Shown piece by piece: positions 2,886 to 9,348 of a stretch of 34,355 nt of DNA. The stretch comes from a virus. The stretch lies in UHGV virus genome UHGV-2160239; one strand, 5' to 3'. Numbering within the stretch: position 1 is the first letter of the stretch; the number at the start of each line of letters is the position of its first letter. The notes beneath the pieces are model-generated. The model was not told the origin of the DNA and ran no database searches. It was given only the letters and a program-made list of their open reading frames with translations. A program made the position numbers and the translations under genes.

Positions 2886-3302
2886 ATGAACGCAAAAGAA
2901 AAAAATATTATCAATACATTAAAAATAGTGTCAGCAGAGCAAGACAAGCTGTCCAGGGCAGCCCAGAAAGATAATCAACATATGGTAGCGCTTTACGCAC
3001 TGACCATCGCAATAGCCACCTCTGAAGCAGCCAAAGTTATTGAGGAACAGAGCAAAGAAATCGACACTCTTAAAACACCGTCAACAGTTGCAACCATGAA
3101 TCCGTCCAGCATTGGACGCTGCATTTATATTCTTGGTTCAGCAATGATGCTGCAATACACCATTATTGCCGAACTGCACGGCAAATACCTGATAACGCCT
3201 TACCACACAAAAGAGTCAGAGCTTCTGACAAATCTCCGCCTGATAGAACGCTCTCAAGCTGTATTCATTGATGACGCGCAACGTGCCGTATTTAACGCAT
3301 AG
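2886..3302 (+). CDS. Hypothetical protein in AT-rich insert
   Basis: 138 aa ORF; GGAG RBS; local base composition visibly more AT-rich than flanking phage genes. Confidence 0.5.
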   Translation: MNAKEKNIINTLKIVSAEQDKLSRAAQKDNQHMVALYALTIAIATSEAAKVIEEQSKEIDTLKTPSTVATMNPSSIGRCIYILGSAMMLQYTIIAELHGKYLITPYHTKESELLTNLRLIERSQAVFIDDAQRAVFNA

Positions 3303-3330
3303 GGTTATTGGACAAAAAAAAGGGGGGGCA

Positions 3331-3534
3331 ATGGCAATTAAGCATTTTCCCGTCGTTCGCTTTACCTCCAGAGGGCGCGAATACGAGGTCGACGAACGCC
3401 TGATTACCACTATCGACAAACATCGTTCGGAAAAGGATGCACACCACATCTACCTCACTGACGGCACTTATTTCTGCGCCACTAATGTGGCGCGGGTAAA
3501 CCTTATCCGACAGGTACAGGAGCAGCGTAAATGA
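3331..3534 (+). CDS. Hypothetical small protein, first gene of coupled four-gene operon
   Basis: 67 aa from ATG 3331, preceded by an A8 G7 homopolymer that serves as the RBS; stop overlaps the next start (ATGA). Confidence 0.45.
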   Translation: MAIKHFPVVRFTSRGREYEVDERLITTIDKHRSEKDAHHIYLTDGTYFCATNVARVNLIRQVQEQRK

Positions 3535-3749
3535 ACAGAAGGCGAATCACACGCAGGCATCGCCGCACACACATGAATTCCTTACCGACGCTGAAAGAAC
3601 TCATTCAACACGAGATCGCTGATTTCTGCGCAACGCTGGGGTCGCCTGGCGAACCGGAAACACCAGAAGCGATGCAGCGCGAACTCATGATGCGCATCGA
3701 TAACGTTTTTGACTTTTTCCTGAATAACAAAAGAGAGCAATCAACATGA
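3531..3749 (+). CDS. Hypothetical small Arg-rich protein
   Basis: 72 aa; ATGA overlaps on both sides; alternative in-frame start at 3573. Confidence 0.45.
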   Translation: MNRRRITRRHRRTHMNSLPTLKELIQHEIADFCATLGSPGEPETPEAMQRELMMRIDNVFDFFLNNKREQST

Positions 3750-3949
3750 ACAAAAAGACCTGGTTTCGCGCATACATGTGGGCGCTGGTATGCGTCCTCG
3801 TCTCTCTCATTCTGTATGCAGGACTACTCCCCCGAATGATTTCATCAGACAGCTCCTTCCTGGTATTGCTGGGCATTTTCATTGCCATGCTGTACCCGGC
3901 AGGCGTTGTTCGCCTTTTCAGTAAGTACATCAAGGAAATCAAACAATGA
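3746..3949 (+). CDS. Small two-helix membrane protein (possible NfeD/YqiJ-like partner of the SPFH protein)
   Basis: 67 aa with two hydrophobic stretches (WALVCVLVSLILYAGLL and FLVLLGIFIAMLYPAGVV); ATGA overlap with the downstream SPFH gene. Confidence 0.55.
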   Translation: MNKKTWFRAYMWALVCVLVSLILYAGLLPRMISSDSSFLVLLGIFIAMLYPAGVVRLFSKYIKEIKQ

Positions 3950-4776
3950 AGAAACTCAAACTCTTTCAGATTATCCCGCTTTTTGCGGCCATCCTGTTGG
4001 TTGGTTGCGATCGCGTTGAGCCAGGTAATGTGGGCATCAAAGTCAACAAGCTGGGCGACGACAAAGGCGTCGGCGAAGTGGTTGGCGTTGGCCGCTACTG
4101 GACTGGCTGGAATACCGAGGTTTACATCTTCCCGACCTTCAAACAAATGAAGACCTACGATGAGCCGTTCAGTTTCCAGATGAGCGATGGCACAACCATC
4201 GGCTATCACATCGGCGTGGCCTACAAGGTTGATCCATCCAAAGTGACCACAGTGTTTCAGACCTACCGCAAAGGCGTGGATGACATTACCGACACTGACC
4301 TGCGCCAGAAGATCGCCGATGCACTCAACCGACTGGCCAGCAAAATGACCACCGATAAGTTTATCGACGGTGGCAAGTCTGAACTGCTGGATTCAGCACT
4401 TAAAGACATTCAGGCAGAAATGACACCTATCGGCATTCAGGTAATGAGCCTCTCTTATGTCGGTAAACCGGAATACCCACCAACCGTTATCGACAGCATT
4501 AATGCCAAAGTCACGGCAAACCAGAAAACTCTGCAACGCGAACAGGAAGTCAAGCAGCGCGAAGCAGAAGCCAACATGCTACGCGCAGAAGCAGCCGGAC
4601 AGGCTGATGCCATTCGCACAAAAGCCCAGGCTGAAGCCGACGCCATTCGTTTGCGCGGTGAAGCTCTGCGCCAGAACCCCGGCGTTATGGAGCTGGAAGC
4701 TATCAACAAATGGAACGGCACGCTGCCGCAATACATGACCAGTAATACCGCTGTTCCGTTTGTTCCGGTGAAGTAA
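3946..4776 (+). CDS. SPFH / band-7 (stomatin-prohibitin-flotillin-like) lipoprotein
   Basis: 276 aa; signal peptide with lipobox LLVGC; central SPFH-like region followed by an Ala/Glu/Arg-rich coiled coil (QREQEVKQREAEANMLRAEAAGQADAIRTKAQAEADAIRLRGEALRQ) typical of band-7 proteins. Confidence 0.8.
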   Translation: MKKLKLFQIIPLFAAILLVGCDRVEPGNVGIKVNKLGDDKGVGEVVGVGRYWTGWNTEVYIFPTFKQMKTYDEPFSFQMSDGTTIGYHIGVAYKVDPSKVTTVFQTYRKGVDDITDTDLRQKIADALNRLASKMTTDKFIDGGKSELLDSALKDIQAEMTPIGIQVMSLSYVGKPEYPPTVIDSINAKVTANQKTLQREQEVKQREAEANMLRAEAAGQADAIRTKAQAEADAIRLRGEALRQNPGVMELEAINKWNGTLPQYMTSNTAVPFVPVK

Positions 4777-4782
4777 TTAAAC

Positions 4783-4807
4783 CCGGCCAGTGGAAACCGC
4801 TGGCCGG
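4783..4807 (+). terminator. Stem-loop downstream of the SPFH gene (possible terminator)
   Basis: CCGGCCAG ... CTGGCCGG inverted repeat right after the stop codon; T-run is displaced about 14 nt, so termination efficiency is uncertain. Confidence 0.35.
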
Positions 4808-5143
4808 AGCAGCATCAGGATTTTTTAGTATGCCGTTCTCACAAAAAAACCGCTTGCCATGCCGCAATCAGTCAGGTTACATTTCCGCTGCACCTCATAA
4901 AACGGGTGCCGGGTTTCGCAGCCTGCTGACTAGCAAAGCGCACAACCGCGCCAGCGGTTTTTTTGTGCGTACTGTATTGCCACGTCTTTTTCGCACACGA
5001 ATTATGGCGGGGCGTACGGGGCCGACTTCGGTCGGGCCGGGTTCTTTGCTAGCCGGTACTGCGAACCTCGTACGTCTCGCCACCCACAGTTTCGCAGCTC
5101 TGGATGGTGAGTTTTCAAAACTTACTAGCAAAGAGGCCACACC

Positions 5144-5374
5144 ATGGCAAACCGCAAACAGCACCGCGCTATCGCGGAGCGTCGTCACATCCAGACTGAA
5201 ATCAACCGCAGACTTTCCCGCGCATCACGCGTCGCGCAAATCATGCACATCAATATGCTGCATGAGCGCAGCCACGCACTATCAAACATTTATTCCGCCT
5301 CTGTTTTCAGCTATCTGGCGGATGATCTGCGCGAGCTTCAGCAGCTCATCCAGCAGCAAAACCAACTCCATTAA
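5144..5374 (+). CDS. Hypothetical small protein upstream of A
   Basis: 76 aa; AGAGG RBS; basic, helical-looking sequence, possibly a regulator. Confidence 0.5.
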   Translation: MANRKQHRAIAERRHIQTEINRRLSRASRVAQIMHINMLHERSHALSNIYSASVFSYLADDLRELQQLIQQQNQLH

Positions 5375-5446
5375 TTCCTGTTCCGGGCCTTTCCTGCACC
5401 TTGCGGCGGGAGGCCTTCGCACATCTGTACTTTGACGGAGTTTGTG

Positions 5447-7753
5447 ATGAGTACCTCTCACTCATACCCGTGGAACGCGCCGGACTGGGACGTGGCAACA
5501 GCAAACGGCATCACGCCCGACGCTGCCGTCTCTGCCGTGCATGAAACCACCGAAACCACAAGCAACACAGCATTCGCCTACCTGACACCGGACGGCGAAC
5601 GCCGCGTGCTGGATATGAGCGACCTCCGCGCAGTCTGCCGCGAGTATCAGAAGGGGCTTCTGGAGCGCGAACGACAGGAAATCATCCGCCGCCGGAAACA
5701 TGAGGAGTGGCTGCGTCGCCGTCTGGCCACGCTGCCTTCATTCATCCGCACCACCTTCTCCAGAAAACTGGAAAAGATGGACAGAGAAACGCCGGAACGC
5801 GCTTACCACTGGCTTTGCGGAACGTTCGAGAAGCACGTTCTGCGCCGCGTGGATGTGGTAAATGAACAGTACGAACCGCAGACACCGTGGCCCGACATGC
5901 TGCTCCCTTTGCGCGACGCGTTTCACCGCCTGCCGTGGGCGGACAGGAAGAAAATGCGCCACCTCGCCTGGTTGCTGGCCTCCGTCATGACATCGGAATT
6001 CACACGCCGGTTTGATGACCAGTACGCGCTCACGGGCGATCTGGAATCATCCGTGGTGGACGCATACGGCTATATTGCAAGCCGCGCGACTTTTCTGAAC
6101 ATCTTCATCCCCGGTTGGCGGCATTATCAGGGTGAAAGTCTGACACCGGATGATGCACTCCGCTGTGTTTCCCGCCTCCAGTCGCAGAAGTGGTGGCTGG
6201 GAAAAATCCGGCGAATCCACGAATGCTGGCGCGAACATCTGTTGATTGCCACGGGGCACGTGAGCAAATACGCAGGCGCAAAATGCTCTGACGAGTGTCT
6301 CGCATCGTGGCGTGCGCAACGCAAGGCAAACCTTGAATGGATGTCGGCAATGGACCTGGAAAACGAGGATACGGGCGAGCGTATGCCGCTGCTCGACAAG
6401 GTGCTGGGCAGCGTTGCTAACCCGAAAATAGCCCGTCATGAACTCACCGTTCGTGCGGCTGGCTTTCAGGCGACCGCTGACGAGATGGGTTACGTCGCCA
6501 TGTTTTACACACTGACCGCCCCTTCCTCGTATCACTCAATGCGCGTCAAAGACGGAAAACGGAACGACAAATACAACGGGGCCAGTCCGCGTGCCACGCA
6601 GAAATATCTCTGTAAGGTCTGGAGCCGCGTTCGCGCCGCGTGGCGGCGTAAAGGCATCCGCACCTTTGGCATTCGCACCGCTGAGCCTCACCACGACGGA
6701 ACGCCGCACTGGCATCTCGTTCTCTGGTTCCACCCGGACGACACCGAAGAGGCCACACGCATATTCCGGGAGTATGCGCTGGCGGAAGACGGTGGTGAGT
6801 CGGGTGCTGACAAGTACCGCTTTGAAGCGGTCGAAGAGGACAAAACGCGCGGCCGCGCAATTGGCTACATCGTCAAATACATCTCCAAAAACATCGATGG
6901 CTACGGGCTGGATGGCGAAGCCGACCGCGAAACAGGAAAATCCCTGAAAGACGAAGCGCGACGCGTCAGGGCATGGGCTTCGCGCTGGCGTATTCGTCAG
7001 TTCCAGCAGATTGGGGGCGCACCTGTTTCGGTCTGGCGTGAACTGCGCCGACTGGGGGGGTGTGAACTGGTACTGCATCCACAGATTGAAGGCATTCGCG
7101 CCGCAGCAGATGAGGGGGACTGGCAGGCGTACACCATGCTTCAGGGTGGGCCTTTTGTGGAGCGTTGCGAACTGGTGGTTCGTCTCGCCTATGACAGACA
7201 GGAGGATGCCAACGCCTACGGCGACACAGTTTGCAAAATTGCAGGAGTCCGCGACATGACAATGCCGCCGGAAGACATGATTTTCACTCGCCTTAACACT
7301 TACAAAATTGTGCCAAAAGTCAGCAAAAACAATGACAAAGAACAAACAGAAGGCCGCGACGCGGCCCCTTGGAGTTCTGTCAATAACTGTACGCACAGAC
7401 GAAGCAGTGGTGAGCATGAAGGCGAGCATTCCGACAAAACACCACCGGAATCACCGCCGGAAACGGTGAAAAAAGCGCCGGAATCACCATCACAGACAGA
7501 AGAAGATAGCGCCAGTCTTAACCAAATCATCGGGCCGCTGGAGCGACTCGGCTTTACCGTGTCCCGCCACCTCGCAAAATCCGTTCTTGCGGGTGGCGTA
7601 GTGCGCTCAACCGACGGTGTTGTCGCCCGCTGGGACACATCATGTAACAGACTGGTGGTCACGCGCGCGAACGCGTCGCCGTCGCTGGTTGTTTCGAAGG
7701 TTTCCGAATACACCAGACGACTGAAATGGGCGCTGGCACGGAGGTCGCTGTGA
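5447..7753 (+). CDS. A: Replication initiation endonuclease (P2 gpA-like, HUH rolling-circle)
   Basis: About 768 aa from ATG 5447 (GGAG 6 nt upstream); HUH-type metal motif in TPHWHLVLWF and catalytic tyrosine motif GYIVKYISKNIDGY; size and position match P2 gene A. Confidence 0.9.
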   Translation: MSTSHSYPWNAPDWDVATANGITPDAAVSAVHETTETTSNTAFAYLTPDGERRVLDMSDLRAVCREYQKGLLERERQEIIRRRKHEEWLRRRLATLPSFIRTTFSRKLEKMDRETPERAYHWLCGTFEKHVLRRVDVVNEQYEPQTPWPDMLLPLRDAFHRLPWADRKKMRHLAWLLASVMTSEFTRRFDDQYALTGDLESSVVDAYGYIASRATFLNIFIPGWRHYQGESLTPDDALRCVSRLQSQKWWLGKIRRIHECWREHLLIATGHVSKYAGAKCSDECLASWRAQRKANLEWMSAMDLENEDTGERMPLLDKVLGSVANPKIARHELTVRAAGFQATADEMGYVAMFYTLTAPSSYHSMRVKDGKRNDKYNGASPRATQKYLCKVWSRVRAAWRRKGIRTFGIRTAEPHHDGTPHWHLVLWFHPDDTEEATRIFREYALAEDGGESGADKYRFEAVEEDKTRGRAIGYIVKYISKNIDGYGLDGEADRETGKSLKDEARRVRAWASRWRIRQFQQIGGAPVSVWRELRRLGGCELVLHPQIEGIRAAADEGDWQAYTMLQGGPFVERCELVVRLAYDRQEDANAYGDTVCKIAGVRDMTMPPEDMIFTRLNTYKIVPKVSKNNDKEQTEGRDAAPWSSVNNCTHRRSSGEHEGEHSDKTPPESPPETVKKAPESPSQTEEDSASLNQIIGPLERLGFTVSRHLAKSVLAGGVVRSTDGVVARWDTSCNRLVVTRANASPSLVVSKVSEYTRRLKWALARRSL

Positions 7754-8388: not shown

Positions 8389-9348
8389 ATGAAAATTTGT
8401 ATCGACGACGGCTCCACCAACATCAAGCTGGCATGGACTGAGAACGGCGAACGCCGCAACGCCATCAGCCCGAACAGCTTCAAGTCGGAATGGTCTGCGC
8501 CGTTCGGTGGCACGCAGCCCGCGAACTACATGCTTGATGGCGTGCGCTATGGTTTTGATCCGGTTAGCGATCGCTTTGTCCAGACGACCGACACGCAATA
8601 CCAGTACAGCGATGTGAATGTCATTGCCATTCATCACGCGCTGGTCAAATCAGGCATCACACCACAGGAGGTGGATGTGGTTGTCACCCTTCCACTGAGC
8701 GAGTATTTCGACACAAACGCACAACCGGACATGGCCAACATCAACCGCAAAAAAGCGAACGTTATGCGCCCGGTGGAATACCAGAACGGCGAAGCATTCA
8801 CTATCCGCAACGTACGGGTTATGCCTGAATCCATTCCGGCTGGCTTTAAGGCACTGGCTGACATGAGTCCGTTTGAATCCCTGCTGATTGTGGATTTAGG
8901 CGGAACCACGCTGGATGTGGCAAAGGTTCAGGGACAACTGGCAGGTATCAGCCAGGTGTTTTGCGATCCACACGTAGGCGTTTCCCTGATAGCCGATGCC
9001 GTACTGTCGGTGATGGCCACTAACGGTATGCGTACCAGTCACCATATCGCCAATACCATCATCGAACATCGCCACGATGAAGTCTGGCTGCGCCAGCACA
9101 TCCACAATGACGCGCATTACGACAGCCTGATGGCGGTAATTCGTGAAAAGGAAGAAACACTGAAACAACGCGTGATCCGCGCGCTGGCGGGTTTTTCGGG
9201 TTACGGGCAGGTGATGGTTGTCGGTGGAGGGGCGGAGATTGTGGCACCCGCTATCCGCGAAGCCTGCGGAGTTAATGCGACTTTCATCGCGGACGGGGTG
9301 CCACAGTTTGCTCTGGTTAATGGGCTGTACGCAATGGACAAGGAGTAA
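8389..9348 (+). CDS. parM: Actin-like plasmid segregation ATPase ParM/StbA
   Basis: 319 aa; N-terminal IDDGSTNIKLAW phosphate-1 motif, YSDVNVIAIHHAL, VMPESIPAGF, LIVDLGGTTLDVA phosphate-2 and VMVVGGGAE adenosine motif, collinear with plasmid R1 ParM as I recall it. Confidence 0.9.
   Translation: MKICIDDGSTNIKLAWTENGERRNAISPNSFKSEWSAPFGGTQPANYMLDGVRYGFDPVSDRFVQTTDTQYQYSDVNVIAIHHALVKSGITPQEVDVVVTLPLSEYFDTNAQPDMANINRKKANVMRPVEYQNGEAFTIRNVRVMPESIPAGFKALADMSPFESLLIVDLGGTTLDVAKVQGQLAGISQVFCDPHVGVSLIADAVLSVMATNGMRTSHHIANTIIEHRHDEVWLRQHIHNDAHYDSLMAVIREKEETLKQRVIRALAGFSGYGQVMVVGGGAEIVAPAIREACGVNATFIADGVPQFALVNGLYAMDKE

Follow-up and report, generated by a model that had tools for sequence, protein, structure and literature searches.

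Genes for proteins with an SPFH domain are found in phages as well as in bacteria, and such a gene in a prophage raises the question of which neighbours it works with and what the phage gains from it. In this study, this question was addressed for positions 3331-4776 of the UHGV virus genome UHGV-2160239, a stretch of 34,355 nucleotides that is referred to below, at its full length, as the window. The window is a P88-like prophage of Escherichia coli (genus Xuanwuvirus, family Peduoviridae, P2-like). An earlier note on this DNA had described a tightly coupled operon of four genes, ending in an SPFH lipoprotein with a small two-helix membrane partner, which it compared with the NfeD-like partners of other SPFH proteins; it had regarded the operon as likely cargo, possibly for envelope alteration, exclusion or abortive infection. 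Here, the unit is redefined as a mobile cassette of two genes, which encode a predicted SPFH lipoprotein and a two-transmembrane partner that is not an NfeD protein, and a probable placement and role of the complex in the infected cell are proposed.

Characterized bacterial SPFH systems act in membrane-protein quality control or stress. A classification of prokaryotic SPFH proteins from 2009 lists small uncharacterized subfamilies, with lipoproteins and phages unmentioned. Many phage genome papers note SPFH proteins, and the most recent one found, a 2026 paper on an N4-like phage, states that the reason why phages carry SPFH genes 'remains unclear' (PMC13239085). Literature searches on phage SPFH genes, including those by protein accession and by defence or exclusion, returned annotation-level mentions only and nothing functional; furthermore, no published description of the pairing or fusion, the cassette boundaries or the topology was found. 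The genes themselves are already catalogued as PHROG 200 and PHROG 1130 and as RefSeq 'SPFH domain-containing protein', and the phage entries P88 gp11-gp12, phiP27 L05 and RCS47 gp078 represent the same genes at the level of annotation only.

A mobile two-gene cassette

The cassette and its parts are located as follows.

~3740-4839, + strand: mobile cassette of ~1.1 kb (two-transmembrane gene, SPFH gene and 3' hairpin)
3746-3949, + strand: gene 3, 67 residues, two hydrophobic helices with basic termini and a short loop
3946-4776, + strand: gene 4, 276 residues; signal peptide at 3946-4005, lipobox Cys21 codon at 4006-4008, SPFH domain at residues 23-209
4783-4807, + strand: GC-rich hairpin with an 11-bp stem, just 3' of the SPFH stop codon and within the cassette

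This interval is missing from the phage vB_EcoM-569R5, in which the flanks are collinear with the window: in a blastn alignment, window 3606-3739 corresponds to 569R5 3812-3949 and window 4840-5429 to 569R5 3956-4545. The close relative 520873 also lacks the cassette. When IMG/VR was scanned for the right-junction sequence, 69 contigs had enough upstream DNA to be scored; the cassette was present in 27 and the site was empty in 31, while the other 11 held a ~183-residue open reading frame (six contigs) or other content (five contigs). The cassette itself is therefore either present or absent at a single site in relatives that are collinear elsewhere. Homologues of the two upstream genes of the supposed operon, genes 1 and 2, occur in 37 IMG/VR contigs without the SPFH cassette.

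The same pattern is seen in 5426 complete E. coli genomes. The gene for the replication endonuclease gpA was unusable as a denominator for P88-like prophages, being matched in 1/5426 genomes, and the portal and terminase genes were taken instead. These occur in 1098 genomes, and the P88-type allele of the two-transmembrane gene and signal-peptide region in only 145, so that the cassette allele is present in ~13% of the genomes with P88-like structural genes. The functional unit is genes 3 and 4 only, since homologues of genes 1 and 2 are found without them. It is an accessory mobile cassette outside the P2 core, because sites in relatives are empty and the allele is found in 145 genomes against 1098. 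The view of the locus as cargo foreign to the P2 core is thus borne out, whereas the idea of a four-gene unit has to be given up.

An 11-bp microhomology lies at the left (window 3750-3760, ACAAAAAGACC) and right (window 4843-4853, ACAAAAAAACC) junctions and may have mediated the deletion that gave the empty site of 569R5. In some relatives (contigs L138, L142, L153, L154 and L195) the slot is filled by the ~183-residue open reading frame (MKLKPMGTPGVAPAHVKPWTQQEDELL...); in contigs L135 and L190, a DNA methyltransferase-like open reading frame with a DPPY motif and a 103-residue open reading frame lie upstream of it.

The two-transmembrane partner

The N- and C-termini of the gene 3 product are predicted to be cytoplasmic, and the conserved loop between its helices (LLPRMISSDSS) is predicted to be periplasmic. 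The loop has nine residues and follows the family motif P-x-[LM]-[ILV]-S-[SA]-x-[STD]. The protein belongs to phrog_1130 ('membrane protein', E = 1e-22). It gave no NfeD match at E <= 1 and no Pfam match of any kind, and an NCBIfam search also gave none. Identity with NfeD was ruled out by the absence of an NfeD Pfam match together with the length of the protein, 67 residues being too short for the oligonucleotide/oligosaccharide-binding (OB) fold domain. The comparison with NfeD is therefore withdrawn, while the pairing of the SPFH protein with a small two-helix membrane protein is upheld in several bacterial phyla and in unrelated phages.

Relatives of the SPFH protein were collected in an exhaustive HMMER search, which yielded 2890 clusters at 50% identity, 220 of them at E <= 1e-30; the best 150 are mostly lipoprotein-like proteins of ~280 residues. 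Approximately 18-20 of ~123 full-length 50%-identity representatives (~15%) are fused forms of 330-390 residues, in which two hydrophobic helices around the loop motif are followed by a third hydrophobic segment, a cysteine and the SPFH domain. In hhalign, a profile of standalone partners aligned with a profile of the fused N-termini, the invariant Pro and Ser included, at 98.3% probability and E = 1.2e-14, scores of a kind that transmembrane composition inflates.

A total of 38 bacterial loci were inspected, 37 of them scored, from Dyella, Pseudomonas, Luteibacter, Leptospira, Bacteroidales, Saprospirales, Eubacteriaceae and Iamiaceae; the alignment used to find them was narrow and biased to the 'CSKVPAG' clade. 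The partner gene lies immediately upstream of the SPFH gene in 30 of these loci and is fused to it in two (~32/38 adjacent or fused), and two more cases were seen by eye. In addition, the partner was found in unrelated phages: in phiP27, the P1-like RCS47, an N4-like contig and phage-plasmids of the SSU5 type. Three virulent phages, SSE121, Bruynoghevirus Paer4 and the crAss-like cr85_1, have it as well. Word-based searching with the 67-residue protein retrieved close E. coli alleles only, and the distant partners were found through synteny and the motif. These comparisons identify the two-transmembrane protein, with good reason, as a genuine and evolutionarily conserved partner of the SPFH protein, either adjacent or fused, and point to an ancient origin.

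The partner genes of phiP27 (NC_003356, 2762-2950) and RCS47 (NC_042128, 2730-2966) encode 62 and 78 residues, respectively, are unannotated in RefSeq and overlap the start-codon region of the SPFH gene.

The predicted SPFH lipoprotein and its probable topology

Gene 4 matches the Pfam family Band_7 (PF01145) with E = 7.6e-31 and 107.9 bits against a cut-off of 23.6, over profile positions 2-176 of 176, and phrog_200 ('lipoprotein') with E = 1e-111; it is 98.9% identical to P88 gp12 and has the conserved C-terminus EAINKWNGxLP...PF. The AlphaFold2 model of the monomer has a mean predicted local distance difference test (pLDDT) score of 68, with 73-92 in the core; strands occupy residues 48-95 and 164-176, helices cover 97-162, and one long helix of 65 residues spans 179-243. 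In a Foldseek search with this model, the cage subunits prohibitin, erlin, HflK/C and stomatin came out on top (E ~ 1e-9), with flotillin also matched; the E values ranged from 1e-9 to 1e-5 over 200-250 columns. By sequence, HflK is the closest solved relative in the PDB, although weakly (E = 7e-4 with the single sequence and 1.5e-8 with the family profile). An NCBIfam search gave no family assignment past generic SPFH.

The 'serine protease' label that the SPFH gene often carries was rejected, since no protease domain is present and Band_7 is the sole Pfam match above the cut-off. In a search of PADLOC-DB 2.0.0, the SPFH protein matched no defence-system component, and the only match of the two-transmembrane protein, 21 residues of PDC-M18B with E = 0.0078, was treated as chance.

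The N-terminus of the gene 4 product reads MKKLKLFQIIPLFAAILLVG-C21-D22-R23, with the lipobox LVGC preceded by a basic n-region and then a hydrophobic h-region (MKKLK-LFQIIPLFAAILLV-G-C21), and with Asp at position +2. To judge from these features and the fold, the product is an SPFH-fold protein with a lipoprotein signal, in agreement with the earlier note. Of 28 enterobacterial homologues, 24 retain the lipobox cysteine, and among the non-fused representatives it is retained in 82 of 105. In the enterobacterial alignment of 28 sequences, position +2 is Asp or Glu wherever the cysteine is present; in other phyla, relatives carry mainly Ser, Thr or Gly at this position. In enterobacteria, Asp at +2 is the rule for avoidance of the Lol sorting pathway, that is, for retention in the inner membrane.

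The SSU5-like alleles (P0115, P0116, P0118 and P0120; locus L088, 4001-4831) have Tyr in place of the lipobox cysteine (GIIGYDRVEPG), and P0116 was seen on 175 contigs. Their products cannot be lipidated and are presumably anchored by the signal sequence.

From these data we infer that the SPFH domain faces the periplasm from the inner membrane, the orientation known from HflK/C. This placement is suggested by four independent observations: the Sec/lipoprotein signal, the acidic residue at +2, the topology of the fused forms and the Tyr-for-Cys anchors. The fused forms have three membrane segments with an Arg/Lys-rich loop between helices 2 and 3, so that the SPFH domain would be outside, and Tyr in place of Cys would leave an uncleaved signal anchor with the orientation unchanged.

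Distribution and mosaic boundary

The SPFH gene is present in ~1700 of the 5426 complete E. coli genomes (~31%), with 388 places on plasmids. Its carriers include Shiga toxin (Stx)-converting phages and P1-like resistance phage-plasmids, and many of the E. coli carriers come from pigs or humans. By tblastn, the SPFH family was detected in 379 of 50,697 phage records, many of them of virulent phages, the hosts being Pseudomonas, Klebsiella, Erwinia, Burkholderia, Caulobacter, Salmonella, Rhizobium and Aeromonas. The family also occurs in Prevotella Lak megaphages, crAss-like phages, N4-like phages, a planctomycete phage and Pseudomonas phages of the therapeutic type. Since many carriers are virulent, the benefit must accrue during lytic infection.

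A Pfam census of neighbouring genes showed the bacterial loci to be mixed. Some are prophage-like, with an integrase, an S24 repressor or a P22-type portal, and many lie beside housekeeping genes (ribonucleotide reductase, LptFG, aminopeptidase); an exclusive association of the family with mobile elements or defence islands is unsupported by this census.

The alleles of lambdoid and P1-like elements share one segment with the window.

4003-4776, + strand: segment common to lambdoid/Stx phages and P1-like phage-plasmids, 87-92% DNA identity

Megablast matches to phiP27, Stx2 phages and RCS47 start at window 4003-4006, at the lipobox Cys codon, and end at the stop codon. When gene 4 is compared with its counterparts in RCS47 and phiP27, the mature proteins are 97-98% identical and the signal peptides 30-40%; the two-transmembrane partners are 22-38% identical. 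One mature SPFH allele is thus combined with long-diverged modules of partner plus signal peptide. The boundary may have arisen by gene conversion across the 5' end of the mature region, which is conserved, or through diversifying selection acting on the partner.

In RCS47, the cassette (SPFH gene at 2947-3774) lies between plp/upl and a tRNA-Met gene, which is followed by ban (dnaB-like). The plp/upl-to-ban interval of P1 contains tciABC, which suggests that RCS47 and P1 use this interval as a common accessory slot for cargo related to the envelope. The lambdoid copies of the cassette are located in the int-proximal early-left region.

Genomic setting

Phage P88 is 95.7% identical to the window over 68% of the first 25 kb, and the best chromosomal match of the window adjoins dmsA, in pig isolates. 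The features around the cassette are the following.

1-1023, - strand: integrase
1057-1386, - strand: C repressor
1454-1780, + strand: cox, followed by a series of small + strand early genes
3331-3534, + strand: gene 1, 67 residues, an upstream early gene, translationally coupled, outside the cassette
3531-3749, + strand: gene 2, 72 residues, with an Arg-rich N-terminus (MNRRRITRRHRRTH), outside the cassette
5432-7753: replication endonuclease gpA
8389-9348: ParM-like gene

The four open reading frames of the earlier note (67, 72, 67 and 276 residues) were confirmed at their coordinates on the + strand, and the three ATGA start/stop overlaps that join them were read directly at 3531, 3746 and 3946. 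Plausible Shine-Dalgarno candidates precede each of the four starts (AAGGGGGGG, AGGAG, GAGAG and AAGGAA). However, ATGA coupling is routine in the early operon of this phage, with five such overlaps in the same region of P88, and three in a row are therefore ordinary. The four genes are the middle part of the cox-to-gpA early transcription unit and not a self-contained operon. No promoter-like site was found on the + strand between 3000 and 3950, nor a convincing promoter upstream of the cassette in RCS47 and phiP27, in promoter scans that were crude and are uninformative for all three sequences.

The RNA of the hairpin at 4783-4807 has a folding energy of -23.2 kcal/mol (z = -4.3 against shuffled sequences). 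Its U-run begins ~13 nucleotides downstream and the terminator scan made no + strand call; a canonical terminator was ruled out by the distance of this run.

Gene 1 belongs to phrog_3459 (unknown function, E = 5e-45), is 82% identical to P88 gp08 and has a homologue in 569R5 as well. Gene 2 is related to P88 in part only: residues 19-67 (49 C-terminal residues aligned) share 69% identity with the C-terminal half of gp10, an Ead/Ea22-like protein of 104 residues, and the match to phrog_4144 is limited to positions 34-99. In P88, gp09 is a winged-helix protein, and ~340 bp are missing from gene 2 in the DNA alignment with gp09-gp10. In strain EC556, the equivalent of gene 2 is called an N-terminally incomplete pseudogene by the annotation pipeline PGAP. 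Gene 2 is thus a deletion chimera, made of the tail of a winged-helix gene and the C-terminal half of an Ead/Ea22-like gene.

Directly 3' of the cassette, an isrK Hfq-binding small RNA is found at window 4890-4964 (+ strand; 65.5 bits against a gathering score of 50), followed by a C4 antisense RNA at 5000-5087 (+ strand; 82.8 bits against 45) and a 76-residue open reading frame at 5144-5374, a homologue of the 'derepression protein' annotated in P88. These form an immunity element resembling the c4-antirepressor system of the P1/P7 type within a P2-like early region. An 'ash family' pseudogene is also called by PGAP in this isrK/C4 region. The gpA allele has ~60% G+C, compared with 48-53% in its flanks, and has a megablast match in only 1/5426 complete E. 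coli genomes, against 1098 for the portal and terminase of the same prophage; it gives the impression of a replication module, rare or foreign, that was swapped into a common phage. The gene just after gpA encodes a plasmid segregation ATPase of the ParM type, and in relatives a gene for a partition protein comes next, which may point to plasmid-like maintenance as an option in P88-like phages.

Comparison with known SPFH systems

A first parallel is HflK/HflC, with which the phage protein shares the SPFH fold followed by long wall helices and, probably, an SPFH domain anchored to the inner membrane and facing the periplasm. It differs in being phage-borne, in having one SPFH gene and a separate two-transmembrane partner, and in its lipid anchor in place of an N-terminal transmembrane helix. 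Orthology to HflK/HflC was rejected on the scores of gene 4, which are far under the NCBIfam equivalog cut-offs (24.8 bits against 134.4 for hflC and 22.7 against 159.4 for hflK). A paralogous pair of the K/C type was likewise discarded, the locus having only one SPFH open reading frame, with a 67-residue two-transmembrane protein as its neighbour.

The SPFH-NfeD operons (QmcA/YbbK-YbbJ and Pyrococcus PH1511-PH1510) also combine an SPFH gene with a co-transcribed gene for a small membrane protein. In contrast to these, the phage partner is just a two-transmembrane hairpin, without an OB-fold or ClpP domain, and its gene lies upstream of the SPFH gene and not downstream. YbbK-YbbJ is described as a cage of SPFH:partner heterodimers protruding into the cytoplasm, whereas the phage complex would face the periplasm.

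Two further systems show some resemblance. In Bacillus subtilis, YdjG/H are small membrane proteins working with YdjI. The membrane-stress operon ydjFGHI, with YdjI and PspA, thus offers an SPFH protein with non-NfeD small membrane proteins, but it is Gram-positive and cytoplasm-facing and has PspA as its effector, and no PspA-like gene adjoins the phage cassette. The YdjI/PspA system is reported to serve in membrane surveillance and repair (PMC8581546). PM0222 (Pmorf0222), an HflK/C-like SPFH protein encoded by a prophage of Pasteurella multocida, is similar in size; it has been reported as a 25-35 kDa SPFH virulence factor that is present in outer-membrane vesicles and signals via TLR1/2 (PMC9872710).

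Proposed mechanism and alternatives

The following mechanism is proposed for the cassette. After export, the SPFH domain would be fixed to the inner membrane at the periplasmic leaflet, and the P-x-M-I-S-S loop of the partner would be its sole part exposed on that side, in a position to touch the SPFH domain, with the conserved N-terminal GxVGxKVxxxGxxKGV region as the candidate contact. By homology with HflK/C, prohibitin, stomatin and QmcA, the SPFH subunits would form a ring or cage. As the SPFH protein has a lipid anchor only, the partner helices would supply the transmembrane ring that fences off a patch of the inner membrane, and the fused homologues suggest a stoichiometry of ~1:1. The cassette would be transcribed with the early (Pe, cox-to-gpA) operon and would hence act when lytic growth begins rather than under repression in the lysogen; a role confined to lysogens is unlikely because the early operon is repressor-controlled and the family is abundant in virulent phages. 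The cage may stabilize or compartmentalize the inner membrane of the infected cell, through membrane-protein quality control and integrity, and would keep the membrane energized and intact until programmed lysis, as a non-essential fitness function that depends on the host.

This scheme as a whole, with its two-gene cassette, periplasmic cage, partner fence, early lytic timing and membrane role, is the best explanation at present, with a probability of roughly 0.45. The role assigned to it, sustaining the infected cell by membrane stabilization or compartmentalization, is put forward more tentatively still; it is suggested by the members in housekeeping contexts, by the quality-control and stress functions of SPFH systems and by the many virulent phage carriers. 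Several points weigh against the scheme. Ring or cage assembly and the contact between partner and SPFH domain are conjectural, the structure prediction having covered the SPFH monomer, and in this model the most conserved N-terminal 35 residues have pLDDT < 50. Asp at +2 followed by Arg is not a classic strong context for Lol avoidance, and some sorting of the lipoprotein to the outer membrane is possible. Expression in the lysogen may occur from an unrecognized internal promoter. Furthermore, patchy presence, variable accessory slots and a hypervariable partner on a near-identical SPFH protein are more typical of phage-phage or phage-host conflict genes than of housekeeping helpers.

This last point leads to the alternatives in which the cassette acts against competitors. 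In superinfection exclusion or envelope-level defence, the periplasm-facing complex would block the genome translocation or tail-tip insertion of other phages, with the SPFH cage as scaffold and the fast-diverging partner as specificity determinant, either in lytic growth, like T4 Imm/Sp, or in lysogeny if an unrecognized promoter exists. Such a function would account for an accessory present/absent cassette in an early variable region, for its occurrence in 145 genomes against 1098 with P88-like structural genes, and for partners and signal peptides that are 22-40% identical where the mature SPFH proteins are 97-98% identical. It would also fit the position of the RCS47 cassette in the plp/upl-to-ban interval, which contains tciABC in P1, and the predicted exposure of the complex at the inner-membrane surface that DNA meets on its way in. 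However, no PADLOC model was matched and nothing on exclusion or abortive infection was found in the literature; homologues are stably placed beside housekeeping genes across Dyella and Leptospira species, and the genes lie in a repressed early operon with no internal promoter-like site. To our knowledge, the known exclusion proteins are small and unrelated, which also counts against exclusion, and this function is considered a live alternative, though rather unlikely. A somewhat more doubtful variant is a modular device for envelope conflict, in which exchange of the hypervariable two-transmembrane 'specificity' partner redirects a conserved periplasmic SPFH cage to new targets; if so, such swapping would explain why near-identical mature SPFH proteins are joined at the lipobox cysteine to partners of 22-38% identity in P2-like, P1-like and lambdoid phages.

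The likeness to HflK/C raises the prospect of a mimic that modulates FtsH, the phage cage capturing or displacing the FtsH periplasmic domains and thereby altering the turnover of phage regulators, LpxC, sigma-32 and membrane proteins in favour of the phage programme. HflK is the closest solved relative by sequence, HflK/C are among the top fold matches, and the probable periplasmic orientation is the same. In addition, the lambdoid cassette lies in the int-proximal early-left region, and cIII, the FtsH inhibitor of lambda, is encoded in the early-left region. Nevertheless, the scores are far under the HflK and HflC equivalog cut-offs, the single SPFH gene forms no K/C pair, and members of the family are common among virulent phages as well as in phyla whose FtsH is divergent, so that a role on FtsH is improbable. 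Counter-defence, with early cages shielding the inner membrane from depolarizing or perforating abortive-infection effectors or masking an envelope perturbation that membrane-associated defence systems sense, is hardly more than a marginal candidate: the cassette is like anti-defence genes in its early-operon location and its accessory distribution, the family is abundant in virulent phages and SPFH proteins are reported to be tied to membrane-stress repair (PMC8581546), but the case is purely circumstantial and chromosomal housekeeping homologues exist. Finally, a surface or vesicle lipoprotein of lysogenic conversion, acting on the animal host, can be modelled on PM0222, the prophage SPFH protein reported as a virulence factor (PMC9872710). 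The gene 4 product is a predicted lipoprotein and many of the E. coli carriers were isolated from pigs or humans; however, Asp at +2, the fused forms with three transmembrane segments and the Tyr-for-Cys variants point to retention in the inner membrane, the family is widespread in environmental virulent phages (Caulobacter, Rhizobium, planctomycete), and the cassette lies in a repressed early operon. A host-directed function is accordingly very improbable.

Significance

The labels 'lipoprotein', 'serine protease' and 'SPFH domain protein' can now be replaced by a defined 1.1-kb unit of two genes with mapped boundaries, an apparently obligate partner, a predicted topology and probable early-lytic expression. 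The definition of the two-gene cassette, the non-NfeD partner with its support from fusions, the proposed periplasmic lipoprotein topology and the mosaic boundary are new in this analysis. For SPFH biology, the cassette would provide a minimal cage with a lipid anchor, from which the transmembrane fence can be separated. Whether its role is exclusion, counter-defence or the sustaining of the infected cell bears on phage therapy and prophage ecology as well as on SPFH biology. If the cage proves to be retargeted in envelope conflict, the partner would decide between the exclusion of superinfecting phages and the neutralizing of membrane-acting host defences, and the cassette, carried by about one third of E. 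coli genomes, would represent a new class of phage-encoded immunity or counter-immunity based on membrane compartments.

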